NCBI GenBank assembly: GCA_048882485.1
Contig: JBHLRP010000030.1
Location: 1 to 38,584, forward strand
Direction: 5' to 3'
From: Candidatus Thorarchaeota archaeon
GTDB taxonomy: Archaea > Asgardarchaeota > Thorarchaeia > Thorarchaeales > Thorarchaeaceae
Length of the DNA stretch: 38,584 nucleotides
Below, piece by piece: positions 3,997-23,823 of this stretch (its first letter is position 1; each line of letters starts with the position of its first letter). Made by a program: the position numbers and the translations under genes. The notes beneath the pieces are model-generated. The model searched no databases. It had not been told where the DNA came from and saw nothing but the letters and a program-made list of their open reading frames with translations.

Positions 3997-5211
3997 GTGT
4001 GCATGACTGGAAAGAGGATATTCGCGGGATGGCTCCTGATTCCACTTCTGCTGTTTGCGACAGCATTAGCTAATTCTACAATATGTGCATCTGCTCAAAT
4101 GACAAGAGACTATTGGCCCACGGATGATTGGAGGACAAGCACTCCAGCAGAGCAAGGAGTCAATAGCTCACGGCTGGAGGAGGCGGCACAGTATATCGTT
4201 GACTCCGGAGCGCGAGTGAGAAGCATGCTTATTGTACACAACGGCTATCTGATCTTTGAACGATACTTCACTCCAAGTCTCTATGACGTGGATGACACCC
4301 ACATCATCTATTCCTGCACCAAGAGTGTCACTTCCAATCTAATTGGAATTGCAATTGACAAGGGCTACATTGACAATACCAGCCAATTGCTAGTAGACTT
4401 CTTTCCTGACATATACATCGATAACCTCGACTCAAGAAAGGAGTCCATAACTCTGGAAAATGTGCTTACAATGACCTCTGGTCTGCAATGGGATGAGGAG
4501 AGATACGATGAGCCAAATGACTACTTTGGAATGACGGGCTCAGAGAATTGGGTTCAGTATGTATTGAACAAGACCATGGTAGCAGACCCCGGTACAACTT
4601 TCTACTACAACACCGGAGGATCCCACTTACTCTCAGCAATTATCAACAGAACAACTGGCATGTCCACCTTAGCTTTCGCCATTGAAAATCTCTTTGAGCC
4701 CTTGGGCATAACAACGCATCCTTGGCCAGTTGATCCTCAGGGAATCCATTTTGGAGGATCAGCATTGGCACTCAGACCTCGAGACATGGCTAAGTTTGGA
4801 TATCTCTATCTGAACAACGGCATATGGGACGGGGATCAGATTGTTTCGTCAGATTGGGTTGCGACCTCCAGGTACGAGCATGTTCCAATATACGGTGGTA
4901 CATTCAGCTATGGCTATCAGTGGTGGATCAATTCGCCTAGTGGCTATTATTGTGCAAGGGGGTATCAAGGCCAGTTCATCTTTGTTGCTCCTGAGGAGGA
5001 CCTTGTTGTGGTCTTCAGCTCAGATATGGATGATATCTACATCTCAACGGATTATCTTGTAACAGACTACATTGTCCCTGCAGTCCAAGACGATATAGTT
5101 CCACACGGCTCTGATCTACTGTCTGCAGTCCTAGTTTCTGTCGGTATAGTTGGCTCTGCAGTCTTTTTGGTTCTTGTCGCATATACTTTGAAGCGAAGAG
5201 CGCATCCTTGA
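3997..5211 (+). CDS. Secreted, C-terminally membrane-anchored serine hydrolase (beta-lactamase class C / 6-aminohexanoate-dimer hydrolase family)
   Basis: SxxK (SCTKS), YxN-type FYYN, LLTM-like VLTMTSG, YGYQWW, ARGYQGQ; N-terminal signal peptide and C-terminal hydrophobic helix followed by KRR. Confidence 0.85.
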   Translation: MCMTGKRIFAGWLLIPLLLFATALANSTICASAQMTRDYWPTDDWRTSTPAEQGVNSSRLEEAAQYIVDSGARVRSMLIVHNGYLIFERYFTPSLYDVDDTHIIYSCTKSVTSNLIGIAIDKGYIDNTSQLLVDFFPDIYIDNLDSRKESITLENVLTMTSGLQWDEERYDEPNDYFGMTGSENWVQYVLNKTMVADPGTTFYYNTGGSHLLSAIINRTTGMSTLAFAIENLFEPLGITTHPWPVDPQGIHFGGSALALRPRDMAKFGYLYLNNGIWDGDQIVSSDWVATSRYEHVPIYGGTFSYGYQWWINSPSGYYCARGYQGQFIFVAPEEDLVVVFSSDMDDIYISTDYLVTDYIVPAVQDDIVPHGSDLLSAVLVSVGIVGSAVFLVLVAYTLKRRAHP

Positions 5212-17703: not shown

Positions 17704-18283
17704 AGTAGTCCAGAGCATTGACTTGAGCTGCGGACTGCATCCAGAAGGAGACCCTGACAAGGACCTCCTCTAAGAAACGGCGCCGGTTGTCTGGTGTGGC
17801 GTCTTTGGGCCACTTAGTCTTGCGATAGTCGTTGAATTCATTGAAAGTCTTGCCGTATTTTGTTGTGAGGGGCAAAGCTACGCGCTCGTTGCATACAGTA
17901 TTGAGTGAACGTATAAGCGTCCTGAAGTCGAGGTCCATCCGCATTAGCCATTTCATCATTGTCTTGAAGAATGGACGTATATTGATCTCATCCCAAGGAA
18001 GTTCTTTGAGGGCATCACGATCATTTCCATTCACACGTTCAGTGTTGACTTTACAGTCCTTCTTGAAATTGCACCTTGCTCTGGCGTAGATCCTGCGATT
18101 TGAAATCCAGACAACTATCTCATGCTCTCCCTTCTTGATCATGGTCTCCTTATGATCTCCAGCCGGAAAGACAACCTCGAGTGTCTTGTCTTTGAATCGA
18201 GCACCAGTCCTTAGATACAGATTCAGTGCCCATGCGATTGCAGGAATTGTGTTTACTGCGTAGTAATCGTCAGGGTCAGTCAT
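17702..18283 (-). CDS. Hypothetical soluble basic protein (start probably ATG 18283)
   Basis: About 193-aa ORF with globular-looking composition, directly downstream of and co-oriented with the Rab-like gene; no family recognised. Confidence 0.7.
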   Translation of the reverse strand: MTDPDDYYAVNTIPAIAWALNLYLRTGARFKDKTLEVVFPAGDHKETMIKKGEHEIVVWISNRRIYARARCNFKKDCKVNTERVNGNDRDALKELPWDEINIRPFFKTMMKWLMRMDLDFRTLIRSLNTVCNERVALPLTTKYGKTFNEFNDYRKTKWPKDATPDNRRRFLEEVLVRVSFWMQSAAQVNALDY

Positions 18284-18356
18284 TTTGCTGAGCTTGAGGG
18301 TTGTATCCATCCTGATATGGATTAGGATTTGCACAGATTTGGCTGAAAATGAGTTT

Positions 18357-18905
18357 CTAGCGGTTTACATTTTGACGCATTCTGACAAGAACAGTGCCCA
18401 GCTCTTCAAAGATGTCAACGACTCCCTCGCCAGTCTTGGCAGAGCTCTCCACATAGGGCATGCCATGAGCATCAGCAAATTCCCTGCCCTCCGAGGGCTC
18501 TATAACTCTATCTGGCAGGTCCGTCTTATTGGCCACAAGCACTAATGGAATCTCCTTCTGGATTGCCTTATGGAGCTCATCTAACCACTCTTGCAGCAAC
18601 ATGAAGGTTCGGCGTCTAGAAACATCGTAAACAAGAAGCCCTCCGTTCGAGCCACGATAGTACATCGGCCGCAGTATCTGAAATCTAGACTGGCCCGCGA
18701 CGTCCCAAATTTGCAACTTCACAACTTGATTCTCGCCATCTGGAGCGACTATGTCTATGTTCTTGACAGCGAACTGAGATCCAATCGTCGTCTTGTAGTC
18801 GGTCCTGAAGAAGCCGTGTGAGAAGCGTGTGACGATGGCGGTCTTTCCGACGGCGCCTTCACCAAGGACTACAACCTTGAAAAGGTAGTCGTATGAGCTG
18901 CTCAC
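18357..18905 (-). CDS. Rab-like small GTPase (start probably GTG 18905)
   Basis: G1 GEGAVGKT, G2 YKTTIG, G3 WDVAGQ, G4 NKTD, G5 SAK; RabF-like IGSQF, KLQIW, RFQIL, YYRGS, LVYDV; GGAGG SD before GTG. Confidence 0.95.
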   Translation of the reverse strand: MSSSYDYLFKVVVLGEGAVGKTAIVTRFSHGFFRTDYKTTIGSQFAVKNIDIVAPDGENQVVKLQIWDVAGQSRFQILRPMYYRGSNGGLLVYDVSRRRTFMLLQEWLDELHKAIQKEIPLVLVANKTDLPDRVIEPSEGREFADAHGMPYVESSAKTGEGVVDIFEELGTVLVRMRQNVNR

Positions 18906-19067
18906 GATTGAATCCTCCGAAATTGAGAACTGCCTGAACAATTGCTATGGCATGTGGGGACAGTTCTACGAAGCGTTAAGAGTTCTAGGGCACTAATAAG
19001 GTTTCGTTCTACATCGCCTCTGACTATAGTGCTCGTTGATATGTGAGAATGGGCAGCATAAAAGAAC

Positions 19068-19989: not shown

Positions 19990-21366
19990 ATGACTGGCAA
20001 TCTCTTCGGTACTACAGGTATTCGAAAGGTCTACGGTACTGAATTTGATCTCTCGATGGCACTAAAACTAGGAAAATCTCTTGGAACATATCTTGGGGAA
20101 GGAACTGTGGTAATGGCAAGAGATGCTCGCACAACTGGACCCATGATAGAGGATGCTCTTACAGCAGGCATTTTGTCTACAGGTGTCAATGTTGTACAGG
20201 CAGGCATGATACCGACACCTACTCTCGCATTTATCACAAGACAGCATGGCTACGATGCAGGACTTATGGTGACTGCATCCCATAATCCTCCTGAATATAC
20301 TGGTGTGAAGTTCTGGAGTCCAGATAGTATGGGCTACACTCCAGAGATGGAGAGAGAGATTGAGCGAATCTATACTGAGGAGGAGTTTCAAGTCGCCAAA
20401 TGGAATGGCTTGGGTGAAGAACTAACCATAGATATTGCTGTGGATGAACACGTTGAAGCTATTCTTGACCAGGTCGATTCTAAAAAGATAGAATCCAAAG
20501 AATACAACATCATCGTTGACCCCGGCAATGGTTCCGGCTCAGTGTTGACTCCATACTTGATGAGAAGGCTCGCCTGCAAGGTCATCTCAATAAATAGCCA
20601 ACCAGATGGTCATTTTCTTGGAAGAGTTTCTGAGCCTGACAAGGAGTCGCTCACAGATCTCATCAAAATCGTCAAGGATACTGGTGCAAATCTTGGTATT
20701 GCCCATGATGGCGATGCGGACAGGGTCGTCTTTGTTACAGAAAAGGGAGAGGTGATTAGGGGAGATCGAACCATTGCCCTTCTATCGCGAGAAGAAATCA
20801 AACGTTCCAAGGACAAGCCCATTGTTACAACTGTGGACAGCTCAAGAGTCGTTGACGAAATCGTCGAGAAGTCCGGTGGGAAGATAATTAGAACTCCTGT
20901 AGGCGATATTCAAGTGGCTCTAAAGATGAGAGAGACTGGAGCAGCATTTGGTGGAGAAGCGGCGGGTGTGTTCATCTTTTCAGAGTTCCACAATGCTCCA
21001 GAACCATTTCTGACTGCTTGCAGGATTCTTGAATTGATGGCAACTGCTGGGAAATCCTTTGGAGAACTAATCTCTGAAATCCCAGTCTATCCACTACGAA
21101 AGGCCAAAGTGAAGTGTGAGAATGAGAAGAAGAACGCTGCTATGTCAGCCCTCGTTAAATCACTTCCAGAGGCGATGGAAGATACGGCGGAAGTCATTAC
21201 AGTGGATGGAATCGGCATCTCGCTCAAAGCAGGATGGGTTCTTGTTCGTCCATCCGGAACTGAACCAGTCATTAGAATTACGTGTGAGGCTCCTTCTGAT
21301 AAGCAGGTGGAGAAGATTCTTGCAGATGCCAAGGCAGAAGTGGAAAGAGCCATAGGCAATTTGTGA
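19990..21366 (+). CDS. glmM: Phosphohexomutase (phosphoglucosamine mutase / PMM-PGM)
   Basis: LFGTTGIR, TASHNP phosphoserine loop, DGDADR metal loop, GGE, VRPSGTEPVIR. Substrate specificity (GlmM versus PMM) is inferred only from context. Confidence 0.85.
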   Translation: MTGNLFGTTGIRKVYGTEFDLSMALKLGKSLGTYLGEGTVVMARDARTTGPMIEDALTAGILSTGVNVVQAGMIPTPTLAFITRQHGYDAGLMVTASHNPPEYTGVKFWSPDSMGYTPEMEREIERIYTEEEFQVAKWNGLGEELTIDIAVDEHVEAILDQVDSKKIESKEYNIIVDPGNGSGSVLTPYLMRRLACKVISINSQPDGHFLGRVSEPDKESLTDLIKIVKDTGANLGIAHDGDADRVVFVTEKGEVIRGDRTIALLSREEIKRSKDKPIVTTVDSSRVVDEIVEKSGGKIIRTPVGDIQVALKMRETGAAFGGEAAGVFIFSEFHNAPEPFLTACRILELMATAGKSFGELISEIPVYPLRKAKVKCENEKKNAAMSALVKSLPEAMEDTAEVITVDGIGISLKAGWVLVRPSGTEPVIRITCEAPSDKQVEKILADAKAEVERAIGNL

Positions 21367-21435
21367 CAGTCAGCTGCACGCGGAATATGTTTATAGACAA
21401 AACTCCCACTTTCAGGCGCTAACGGGGTCAATGAA

Positions 21436-21834
21436 ATGAGCAAAGATGGCGAAGACTTCATTTTGGATGAGTTTGAATGGGCTTTGAAAGACCCAACAGA
21501 AGAGAAATTACGTGCTCTCGGAGAGGTCGTCAGTATAATCACAACCAAACTCACAGAAGCTGTCAGCAAAGTCATGGAGGATGTCTACGAACTCCAGACT
21601 CAGCTATCTAAGCTTGAGTCTTCGTTTGATGCCAAAATCAGCGCACTGCAAAGATCCGGTGTCGCTGCAGCCGGTCCTTCACCAGCAGCGGCAGAGGCAG
21701 GCGGTGAACCTATAGCTTCGGCCCCCATCGCTAAAGCTCCACCTCCAAGGGCGCCTTCTGGACCTGGAGGAATGATGGGCGAACTCAAAGCGTTGCTTGC
21801 TGCTAGAAGACGAAAGGCAGATGGAAGTGGATAA
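21436..21834 (+). CDS. Hypothetical coiled-coil / Ala-Pro-rich protein with a C-terminal WH2/VASP-FAB-like motif
   Basis: Heptad region (LTEAVSKVMEDVYELQTQLSKLESSFDAKISAL), linker APIAKAPPPRAP, tail GGMMGELKALLAARRRKA; TTTATA box upstream near 21390. Confidence 0.75.
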   Translation: MSKDGEDFILDEFEWALKDPTEEKLRALGEVVSIITTKLTEAVSKVMEDVYELQTQLSKLESSFDAKISALQRSGVAAAGPSPAAAEAGGEPIASAPIAKAPPPRAPSGPGGMMGELKALLAARRRKADGSG

Positions 21835-21850
21835 AAACACTCTTGATGCC

Positions 21851-22519
21851 TCAGACTAGCCTATCAACTGCGTTTTTCGGGTAGAATGGACCTGCATGGG
21901 TGGGTAGAGTGATTGCAAATGCTTCTGCTCTATCGCATGCAGCTTGAACTCCTCGTAAACGTGTTCTTGCGTCATACAACTTCAAGTAGTACTGATCAGA
22001 CTTGGGAGTCTGTGACTTGTGTTCTTTCAAAGCTTGAAGAGCCAGGTCATAGGTGCTCCCAATATCGACATGGACATTGGGCATTGAAAGGAGATTATTG
22101 ACCTCCATATGATAGATTCGTTCAACTCGATGTGCATTGTCAAAGATTGTCGCATGAGAAGCCCATTCCGCAGAGTGTGCGACTATCTTTGCACACTCAA
22201 GATGGTTCTTGTTGTAGTCCTCTAAAGAGTGCGTAATCACAATAGCTGGACGCGACTTCAAAATGGCACCAATCACTTCGTTTGTCAAGGAGGAATCGAT
22301 TGCAAAGTCATCTCTCTCACTGAGATACAGATGTCGAACTCCCAACACCTCACACGCTGCTTTAATCTCGGCGTTCCGAGTGTCATTACCCGTCATGCAG
22401 TGAACATCTACAGGAATCCCTTGCTCCACATGCTTCCTGATTGTCCCTCCAGCTCCTAGGGATTCATCATCTGGATGTGCAACAACCACAAGGATGGAGT
22501 TCTTTGATGGGCTGCTCAT
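21851..22519 (-). CDS. bshB: PIG-L/LmbE family deacetylase, BshB-like
   Basis: VVAHPDDESLGAGGTI, R..E...A...LGV, K.HKSQ, AEAF; divergent from bshA. Confidence 0.75.
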   Translation of the reverse strand: MSSPSKNSILVVVAHPDDESLGAGGTIRKHVEQGIPVDVHCMTGNDTRNAEIKAACEVLGVRHLYLSERDDFAIDSSLTNEVIGAILKSRPAIVITHSLEDYNKNHLECAKIVAHSAEWASHATIFDNAHRVERIYHMEVNNLLSMPNVHVDIGSTYDLALQALKEHKSQTPKSDQYYLKLYDARTRLRGVQAACDRAEAFAITLPTHAGPFYPKNAVDRLV

Positions 22520-22659: not shown

Positions 22660-23823
22660 TTGAGGATTGGAGTTAATCTATTTCCCTCAGTGGGCGGTTC
22701 AGGATACCTTGCCACAAGACTTGGTCAGAAGCTGGCTGGTAGAAAGCATATCATTCACTTCATAACTTACCAGCGGCCCTTCTCTCTGATGTGGGAGCAA
22801 ACAAGCGGGGTCTATGTCGATCTCGTCGACCGATTTGATTATCCTCTGTTTAAGAACATTGGACCGCCATATGGCATGGCACTCACATCCAAGATTATCA
22901 AGACAGTGAAAGACGCAAAGCTAGACCTGATACATTCGCATTATGCAATCCCACATGCGATGTCAGCATACATGGCGCGCGAGATAGTTGGTGTCCCATA
23001 TGTTGTGACACTTCATGGTTCCGATGTGCATACACTAGGGCAAGACCCTGCATATCAGCCAGTTGTCAAACACACAATTGAGAAGGCAGATGCAGTCACA
23101 GCGGTCTCTGAATTTCTGAAGAAGAGGGCTCACGAGGGGCTTGGTATCGAGCGCGAAATCAATGTGATACCGAATTTCATCGACGTTGAACAGTTCAAAC
23201 ATCTCAACGGAACTAGACTTATGGTTGAGAGTGGGTGTGTATCAGTCCGAAAGGTGGAAGAAGCAAAAGAGTTAGATCCGGAAGCCAAAATCCTCCTACA
23301 TGCCTCCAATTTCCGCAGGGTCAAGCGAGTGGTTGAACTGATAGAGATAATGAGAATCGTTGCAGACCACTACCCCAAGGTGCGCCTTATCATTGCAGGA
23401 GATGGACCTACTCGAATCGAAGTAGAGAGGAAGATCGAAGCTCTTGACCTCTGTGACAATGTGCATTTACTTGGTGTGAAGAGTAACATGCAGGAAATCA
23501 TGTGCTCTGCTGACGTTTTTCTCCTAAACTCTACCCTTGAAGGGATGCCACTAGTCCTGCTTGAAGCGATGGCATGCAGTCTTCCAGTAGTCACTACACC
23601 GGCCGGGGGAATTCCAGAACTCGTGCGTCCAAATAAGGATGGGATAGTCACTGAAGGATTTGGGATTGATGAGTACGCCCAAGCAATAATCGAAATACTA
23701 GACGACGATTCCCTCCGAACCAGAATAGGCAAAGCTGGACGAAAGCGGGTGGAAGAAAGCTTCTCCGCTGAGGAGATCGTGACAGAGTATGAGAAGGTGT
23801 TTCAAAAAGCAGCGGGCAAATGA
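22660..23823 (+). CDS. bshA: N-acetyl-alpha-D-glucosaminyl L-malate synthase (GT4)
   Basis: FPSVGGSG..AT.LG..LA...H.IHFITY, HSHYAIPHA, TLHGSD, VTAVS, HASNFRRVKRV and LLEAMAC match the BshA subfamily signatures. Confidence 0.9.
   Translation: MRIGVNLFPSVGGSGYLATRLGQKLAGRKHIIHFITYQRPFSLMWEQTSGVYVDLVDRFDYPLFKNIGPPYGMALTSKIIKTVKDAKLDLIHSHYAIPHAMSAYMAREIVGVPYVVTLHGSDVHTLGQDPAYQPVVKHTIEKADAVTAVSEFLKKRAHEGLGIEREINVIPNFIDVEQFKHLNGTRLMVESGCVSVRKVEEAKELDPEAKILLHASNFRRVKRVVELIEIMRIVADHYPKVRLIIAGDGPTRIEVERKIEALDLCDNVHLLGVKSNMQEIMCSADVFLLNSTLEGMPLVLLEAMACSLPVVTTPAGGIPELVRPNKDGIVTEGFGIDEYAQAIIEILDDDSLRTRIGKAGRKRVEESFSAEEIVTEYEKVFQKAAGK

Follow-up and report, generated by a model that had tools for sequence, protein, structure and literature searches.

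The window analysed here is a stretch of 38,584 nucleotides (nt) from a Candidatus Thorarchaeota archaeon (contig JBHLRP010000030.1, positions 1 to 38,584 of the forward strand), and the gene under study is a small open reading frame (ORF) that encodes a protein of 132 amino acids (aa), P0001. The gene is real, because about 270 homologues exist and its conserved blocks are under clear constraint. An earlier note on this DNA, made from the letters alone, had described the ORF together with a linker, APIAKAPPPRAP (residues 96-107), and a tail, GPGGMMGELKALLAARRRKAD (residues 109-129, nt 21760-21822), and all three were confirmed at exactly these positions. The TTTATA hexamer (Table 1) lies in the 69-nt gap that follows the upstream gene, which suggests that the family gene may have a transcription start and promoter of its own.

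In the AlphaFold2 model, which was built on an alignment of 24 sequences, the protein is predicted to begin with a short helix (residues 3-18), to continue into one long helix and a disordered arm, and to end in another short helix. The conserved N-terminal block spans the first short helix, a KDPTEE turn and the beginning of the long helix, while the second half of the long helix (residues 43-76) is variable in sequence. The C-terminal helix carries a hydrophobic stripe (M113, M114, L117, L120 and L121), followed by a basic collar (R124-K127) that faces all sides. The tail region 112-129 contains five basic and two acidic residues, which gives it a net charge of +3. The three-part build read by the earlier note (an oligomer-type helix, a flexible Ala/Pro arm and an end helix) is borne out by this predicted structure.

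Table 1. Coordinates of the family gene, its parts, the neighbouring genes in the window and the tailed GTPases of a Loki-lineage genome. FAB, F-actin-binding; pLDDT, predicted local distance difference test.
Feature	Position	Strand	Basis or remark
Coding sequence, 132-aa family member P0001, stop codon included	21436..21834	+	ORF translation
TTTATA hexamer, TATA-box-like, 41 nt before ATG	21390..21395	+	read directly in sequence
GGGGT, possible ribosome-binding site	21424-21428	+	read directly in sequence
Conserved N-terminal block, residues 9-42, I-x-DEFEWALKDPTEEKLRALGEVVSIITTKL	21460..21561	+	column entropy
Long helix, residues 22-78, presumed oligomerising coiled coil	21499..21669	+	AlphaFold2 pLDDT 82-96
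Disordered Ala/Pro-rich arm, residues 79-111, includes APIAKAPPPRAP	21670..21768	+	pLDDT 41-51
Conserved tail core, residues 109-127, G-x-G-G-MMGELKALLAARRRK, VASP-FAB-like	21760..21816	+	entropy, FAB comparison
Predicted C-terminal helix, residues 112-130	21769..21825	+	AlphaFold2 pLDDT about 67-74
Phosphohexomutase (GlmM/PMM-like), upstream neighbour	19990..21366	+	same strand
LmbE/PIG-L-type deacetylase (BshB-like), downstream convergent neighbour	21851..22519	-	ORF list
GT4 glycosyltransferase (BshA-like)	22660-23823		window ORF
BshC-like protein, 569 aa	23836-25545		window ORF
Arf/RagA-type GTPase, 411 aa	L055:1492-2724	-	coil, Pro-rich stretch, tail
Arf/RagA-type GTPase, 472 aa	L058:211-1626	+	coil, Pro-rich stretch, tail

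The homologues were found by a word-seeded search and are 72-231 aa long. Those that carry a name are nearly all listed as 'hypothetical protein' of Thorarchaeota, with a few from Hod- and Promethearchaeota and one labelled Bathyarchaeota. An exhaustive phmmer scan of 1.84 billion representatives yielded 11 clusters only, which leaves no close relatives beyond this group. A family profile was built from 30 sequences of Thorarchaeota (Thor) and searched in 400 genomes of the phylum (Asgard). It matched 262 of the 400, with an E-value of 3.7e-57 on its own locus; matches were obtained in 80 of the 85 genomes of the window's own family and, for two Loki-type families, in 110 of 135 and 10 of 14. 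Actin was present in all the good genomes sampled (27/27), f4- and f29-type families included. The family is thus, as far as seen, confined to actin-bearing archaea. The earlier note, which took the protein for a possible actin binder, had named a spread into actin-less lineages as a point that would speak against it; so far the family has been seen in Asgard archaea only, nearly all of them actin-bearing.

The family signature is found in alignments A1, A2 and A3. It begins with an N-terminal block (E-F-x-x-x-L ... P-x-E-E-K-L-x-x-L-G-E-V-V), which is followed by the long helix and the disordered arm, and closes with a helix of the pattern (I/M)-M-G-E-L-K-x-L-(L/F)-x-x-R-(R/K). Among the 30 Thor sequences, the mean column entropy is 0.41 bits in the tail (109-127) and 0.49 bits in the N-terminal block (9-42), while it is 1.65 bits in the second half of the coil and 1.55 bits in the arm. 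The expectation, set beforehand, that the tail should be the most conserved part among the homologues therefore holds. The tail is also the lowest-entropy region of the protein phylum-wide, with L117 invariant and E116, K118, L120 and R124 kept in at least 90% of the sequences. Within the N-terminal block, F13 never varies across the phylum and at least 90% of the sequences retain E12 and P20; as a whole, this block has diverged far more than the tail between the Thor and Loki forms. The tail (GG)MMGELKALLAARRRKA is present in all intact homologues that were examined, including distant ones, which have it in the forms ..SLRGAIMGELKELFAKRK, ..ARMQLQSELKELFSRLRR and ..EMRGELKSFLARRR. Three Thor variants that appeared to be tail-less were set aside: one has a longer arm with an intact tail, one has a frameshift-like, aberrant C-terminus and one has Ns in its sequence. 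Internal stops that had been suspected in some Thor matches turned out to be the natural stop codon only.

When the protein and 24 family members were compared with Pfam at E-values up to 10, only weak and generic coiled-coil matches were returned (Trimer_CC, LPP, SlyX and ZapB). A PDB sequence search with the full protein gave nothing meaningful, and the ESM Atlas features led only to the family's own clusters. A WAVE/Brick1-like reading of the N-terminal helix was dropped, as it has no Pfam support. It can be concluded with high confidence that this is an undescribed protein family, seen so far only in Asgard archaea. With equally high confidence, its working part is the terminal helix on a flexible arm that is borne by a helical stalk.

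The earlier note had likened the tail to the FAB motif of VASP and quoted that motif. The quotation is correct, as the same 20 residues are printed as residues 259-278 of human VASP, in a paper that also places the G-actin-binding (GAB) motif at 223-APGLAAAIAGAKLRKVS-239 and the tetramerising coil at 343-380 (PMC10340426). The FAB motif was compared, with no gaps allowed, to all 2.9 million six-frame windows of the organism's own 3.96-Mb genome. The family tail was the top window genome-wide, with a score of 52, and the runner-up reached 41; when the Gly run is left out, the margin is smaller (36 vs 32). With the GAB motif as query, the family ORF was not among the best genome windows. When one gap was allowed, the BLOSUM62 score of tail and FAB was 55, compared to 18.8 +/- 4.2 for 5000 shuffles of the tail, none of which reached 55 (0/5000). 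Loki-type tails can be aligned to the FAB without any gap and also score above their shuffles.

The same resemblance is seen with profiles. A hidden Markov model (HMM) of the Thor tail scores the FAB at 19.8 bits and ranks it second among 20,001 composition-matched peptides, and the phylum-wide tail HMM gives it 14.0 bits and again rank 2. Tail and FAB have a hydrophobic spacing in common (two adjacent residues, one three on, two adjacent), after which Ala and a run of basic residues follow. The hydrophobic moments of the two helices, 0.16 and 0.15, are low. The likeness between the tail and the FAB is beyond chance and is not compositional. The Ena/VASP-like motif of the earlier note stands as a resemblance; homology to VASP is not established at about 20 bits.

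The tail is reused as a module on other proteins. In one Loki-lineage genome, a tail-only profile found two Arf/RagA-type GTPases besides the family gene (Table 1). Like the family protein, they carry a coiled coil (here in the C-terminal part) and a Pro-rich stretch, followed by ..TTVLNELKELFQKRKK or ..RSQIMSELKDIFKKKG. Unlike in the family protein, an N-terminal region and the GTPase domain take the place of the small N-terminal helix, and the tails have diverged further (20-22 bits). In genomes G135, G138 and G147, ten additional GTPase paralogues were examined; these have other C-termini and no tail, and the tail-profile search found no GTPase-tail fusion in the Thor genome. An Arf GTPase that is enriched in a published Lokiactin co-immunoprecipitation (co-IP) was considered as a tail carrier and dropped, since these ten paralogues are all tail-less and the tail profile finds no GTPase in G138, the genome taken for that of Lokiarchaeum ossiferum. 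Judged from the sequences, a tail on GTPases would fit a membrane anchor as well as an effector motif for GTPase-coupled actin assembly.

Three further proteins may be mentioned here. A search of 5.8 billion proteins at E-values up to 10, in which VASP could not surface at its score of about 20 bits, found a single longer protein with the Thor tail, P0131 (JGI, 472 aa, on a 2127-bp contig), in which about 350 aa of a phosphohexomutase stand in frame with a full family member (residues 356-472, 57% identical to P0001). P0131 is either a real fusion of conserved neighbours or an artefact of assembly or gene calling. A 191-aa coiled-coil protein (L056:1453-2025:+, genome G132) has an N-terminal tail-like motif, ..SSPRTSVIGELKQLLQDKK.., which is a weak match (E 0.009) from a single genome. 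A small GTPase of 194 aa at 18357-18941 on the minus strand (Rab/Ras-like, GEGAVGKT ... WDVAGQ ... NKTD) is Asgard-typical and lacks the family tail.

The arm that connects stalk and tail is of different composition in Thor and Loki forms. In P0001, Ala makes up 26% and Pro 16% of it, and PPP occurs once. Thor arms in general range from 20 to 39% Ala and from 11 to 18% Pro; PPP is found no more than once per arm and is missing from half of the members. Loki-type arms are 24-39% Pro and have runs of five prolines (P5), with GPPPPP-type runs directly before the tail, as in ..APPPPPGRTPGSPPPPPGRAPPPPGRAPP.. of a 6.04-Mb single-contig genome. A Pro run followed by a helix is the order of VASP, WASP and formin FH1-tail modules and is typical of actin assembly factors. 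According to published work, a Thor profilin binds VASP polyproline only in the millimolar range. From their arm sequences, recruitment of profilin is plausible for the Loki forms and only weakly so for this Thor protein. In the Loki family f21 (L052:1150-1605:+, L034 and L035), the tail is followed by 2-6 Asp at the extreme C-terminus (..KRRTDDDDDD). This helix-basic-acidic order recalls the acidic end of a WASP-type VCA, minus the conserved Trp.

The gene neighbourhood also differs between the groups. All 30 Thor loci (30/30) share the order phosphohexomutase, family gene, convergent LmbE/BshB-like deacetylase and BshA-like glycosyltransferase, and the phosphohexomutase adjoins the family gene in a second family of the taxonomic order as well. 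This arrangement looks like inherited synteny and is no pointer to function. In Loki lineages, the family gene stands near the genes for Pelota, an Elf1-like protein, a radical SAM enzyme and a protein with a BAR fold; a search of the Thor genome for the Loki neighbours c1, c3 and c6 found no homologue. The BAR-fold protein is an all-helical (three-helix) protein of 206 aa (L046:3242-3859:+ and 12 orthologues, alignment A6) that adjoins the family gene in 13 of the 17 non-Thor loci. Two arrangements of the genes are seen there, and the protein is without a Pfam match. Its AlphaFold2 model (pLDDT 91) matches almost only BAR structures, namely arfaptin (template modelling (TM) score 0.61-0.68), FAM92A, IRSp53 I-BAR/RCB, PinkBAR and MIM IMD, with weak Foldseek E-values of 0.007-0.04. 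The position of the L. ossiferum copy (about 3.02 Mb) rules out that it is the published Bar1 or Bar2. In eukaryotes, I-BAR proteins recruit Ena/VASP. The pairing of the family gene with a predicted BAR-fold neighbour is suggestive of an actin link, and a purely membrane role would fit it too.

Our best single guess, and a tentative one, is that the protein is a small oligomeric tentacle adaptor whose end helix targets the cell's own actin. It is based on the FAB likeness, the BAR-fold neighbour, the occurrence of the tail on GTPases and, in Loki forms, the order of a Pro run and then a helix. Residues 3-78, which comprise the N-terminal and the long helix, would assemble into a coiled-coil stalk, from which each chain would extend a flexible Ala/Pro arm of about 33 residues, tipped by the strictly conserved helix. 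This end helix may bind actin in the manner of the F-actin-binding, WH2-related helix of VASP, and the several tails of a stalk could then tether, bundle or cluster filaments. In Loki-type relatives, the polyproline arms could also feed in profilin-actin. The organism's own genome encodes a lokiactin-type actin and gelsolins. On its contig C4 (genome G000) a two-domain gelsolin (4538-5059, plus strand) and the lokiactin-type actin (17723-18826, minus strand) lie about 12.7 kb apart, and two more single-domain gelsolin-like ORFs are found on C17 and C8. The Pfam Profilin model matched nothing in this genome and was equally silent in its control, so that its silence carries no weight.

The protein resembles Ena/VASP in several ways. 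Its FAB-like helix agrees with VASP in hydrophobic spacing and in a basic run, RRRKA. A flexible Pro-containing segment stands just before this motif (with true P5 runs in Loki-type relatives), and there is a presumed oligomerising helix; the common logic would be several candidate actin-binding tails per stalk. Unlike Ena/VASP, the family protein has no EVH1 domain and no GAB/WH2 monomer site. Its coil is N-terminal; the earlier note had likewise read the modules as standing in a different order from VASP. It is also much shorter (132 aa vs 380 in human VASP), its Thor arm is Ala-rich and the likeness is limited to about 20 residues. With WH2 (PF02205; WASP, WIP and thymosin beta-4) the tail shares a short amphipathic helix that is followed by a basic patch, and Loki tails start with S-L-R-G-A-I-M-x-E-L-K, which recalls the start of the WH2 helix. 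However, the L-(K/R)-(K/R)-(V/T) tetrad of WH2 is absent from the tail, where the basic run comes directly after Ala-Ala. Asgard two-domain gelsolins bind actin via a WH2-like linker of the LKKT type, which reads LRRV in Thor and LVDV in Loki (PMC9433394).

A number of results weigh against actin as the target. The Pfam families WH2, WH1/EVH1 and VASP_tetra have no match in the protein and the 24 family members at E-values up to 10, and PF02205 is not among the Pfam matches listed for these 24 members at that threshold. EVH1 (PF00568) is a beta-rich, PH-like domain without a Pfam match here, and the N-terminus of the family protein is all-helical in the AlphaFold2 model. The coil of VASP_tetra (PF08776) has no Pfam match either, and the sole long helix of the family protein is N-terminal. 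Of the defining features of Ena/VASP or WH2 that could be tested, only the FAB-like motif was found, and on this sequence comparison the family protein should not be filed as a member of either. Neither the sequence of the 132-aa protein nor its AlphaFold2 model contains a second helix-plus-basic, GAB-like motif for monomer binding. Many WH2-actin complexes have been deposited in the PDB, yet a search of it with the tail profile retrieved no solved chain at E-values up to 1, and among the chains at E-values up to 10 there was none of an actin binder or a WH2 protein. The Thor-built profile has no match in some actin-bearing families (e.g. f4, 0/3, and f29, 0/4). The conserved neighbours of the Thor gene belong to sugar and thiol metabolism, and neither a BAR-fold neighbour nor a homologue of it was found in the Thor genome. 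The polyproline that the earlier note had invoked exists as true P5 runs in the Loki-type relatives only, while the Thor arm has at most PPP.

Proteomic data from L. ossiferum bear on the same question. The genome taken for its own (G138) is a single contig of 6,035,313 bp, on which locus tags were assigned via gene order and spacing together with three matching molecular weights: for 02218, 02254 and 02268 the listed values are 24.01, 76.34 and 53.82 kDa, and those of the G138 ORFs are 24.03, 76.38 and 53.86 kDa. The family gene (2628799-2629257; 152 aa, 16.14 kDa) directly follows 02218 in G138 and on this basis would be GNAMCCOK_02219. This protein was detected in 16 of 16 proteome samples with a mean log2 intensity of 18.47; in the same proteome, actin reaches 21.69 and the Arf GTPase 19.68. 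Its abundance rank, estimated from its position in the sorted table, is roughly 400-470 of 3,061. The Lokiactin co-IP is given in Supplementary Table 2 of Nature 658:1218 (2026), in a sheet sorted by ratio whose rows are listed to a log2 of -1.06, with 841 further rows. GNAMCCOK_02219 is not among the Lokiactin co-IP rows listed down to this ratio. The Loki homologue is made in quantity and, within these rows, is not enriched with Lokiactin, which moderately lowers the probability that actin is the target. The effect is only moderate because low-affinity helix motifs are easily lost in a co-IP, because the authors note a bias against membrane-associated proteins and because the rows listed stop at log2 -1.06.

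The protein encoded immediately before the family gene in G138 (L103, G138:C1:2628036-2628656, plus strand) is a zinc-ribbon protein of the Elf1 type whose long acidic extension ends in DDPGFLEF, and it is a conserved near neighbour in Loki lineages. By its molecular weight it is GNAMCCOK_02218, which among the same co-IP rows is enriched with Lokiactin (log2 1.36, adjusted p 0.034).

The tail may also be a short linear motif that binds, in place of actin, a different conserved Asgard partner, perhaps a protein not so far recognised; this explanation is possible if somewhat doubtful. In this case the protein would be a multivalent scaffold, and the FAB likeness would be a convergence on a hydrophobic-helix-plus-basic-patch design. 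A score of about 20 bits (14 phylum-wide) is too little to argue for homology or function and cannot separate homology from chance; by estimate, several chance matches of this kind would be expected per human-size proteome, which likewise counts against actin. The polar residues E116 and K118, so widely kept across the phylum, point to a specific protein interface, whichever one it is. The occurrence of the tail on unrelated scaffolds such as GTPases, the lack of any Pfam or PDB sequence link to actin binders and the absence of the Loki homologue from the co-IP rows listed all suit another partner. However, the gene context names no alternative, as it is metabolic in Thor and consists of Pelota, the radical SAM enzyme, the Elf1-like and the BAR-fold protein in Loki. 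A known partner type was also considered: ESCRT-III tails bind MIT domains via the MIM1 pattern (D/E)xxLxxRLxxL(K/R). An ESCRT-III-type MIM1 tail was rejected, since no register of residues 112-130 fits this pattern and there is no Snf7 Pfam match. The polyproline-then-helix order of the Loki relatives speaks for an actin assembly factor rather than for another partner.

It is unlikely that the tail is a membrane anchor, which would dock the oligomer and the tailed GTPases on acidic lipids, maybe together with the BAR-fold protein in Loki lineages. The net charge of the tail region would agree with such a role, as would the frequent BAR-fold neighbour of the non-Thor loci. The tail also forms the very end of small-GTPase-type proteins, a common site of polybasic anchors. 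The co-IP method under-represents membrane-associated proteins, according to its authors. Like the membrane-targeting helices of MinD and FtsA and the polybasic tails of small GTPases, the family tail is terminal, hydrophobic and basic, and is joined to the body by a flexible linker. Unlike the MinD and FtsA helices, it has a low hydrophobic moment (0.04-0.19 on the Eisenberg scale), with basic residues on all sides instead of flanking one face, and it is near-invariant, including the acidic E116 and G115. Lipid-binding helices usually conserve their physical character only. The Thor tail also has no aromatic residues.

Very unlikely is a tail that folds back on the N-terminal block of its own chain or on the stalk of an adjacent oligomer, in which case the protein would assemble itself into a coiled-coil lattice and have no external ligand. 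In favour of this, constraint is seen in residues 9-42 and 109-127 only, and the arm is long enough to reach back. Against it, the tail also occurs on GTPases that have no N-terminal block, this block differs much more between Thor and Loki than the tail, and the AlphaFold2 monomer displays no confident packing (predicted TM score 0.33). The remaining probability belongs to targets other than these four.

Cultured Asgard archaea crawl and build dynamic actin-filled protrusions. The family described here is not mentioned in the papers on Asgard actin regulators that were consulted. These papers, which reach up to September 2026 and include a review of 2024, name only profilins and gelsolins as such regulators, along with hints of Arf and BAR proteins, and a Nature paper of September 2026 places formins and Ena/VASP filament polymerases in the more complex eukaryotic machinery. 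Being small, abundant in the L. ossiferum proteome, Asgard-only as far as seen and present in most lineages, the family is a testable candidate actin regulator. If its tail binds actin, multivalent tail-on-stalk actin organisers pre-date eukaryotes, by descent or convergence. If it does not, the near-invariant tail that is shared with GTPases marks an unrecognised conserved Asgard interaction hub.

The actin proposal can be extended to an Asgard multivalent actin-assembly factor on Ena/VASP logic (an oligomerising coil, proline-rich arms and a FAB/WH2-type helix), whose tail is also found on Arf/RagA GTPases and whose gene is paired with a BAR-fold protein in Lokiarchaeia. This wider proposal has a real but rather low probability. 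If it were true, actin assembly that is linked to GTPases and membrane curvature would be older than eukaryotes, and the same might hold for the FAB motif.

As a separate observation on the window, the genes that surround the family gene between 19990 and 25545 (phosphohexomutase, deacetylase, GT4 glycosyltransferase and BshC-like protein) form a bacillithiol-type cluster in an archaeon.

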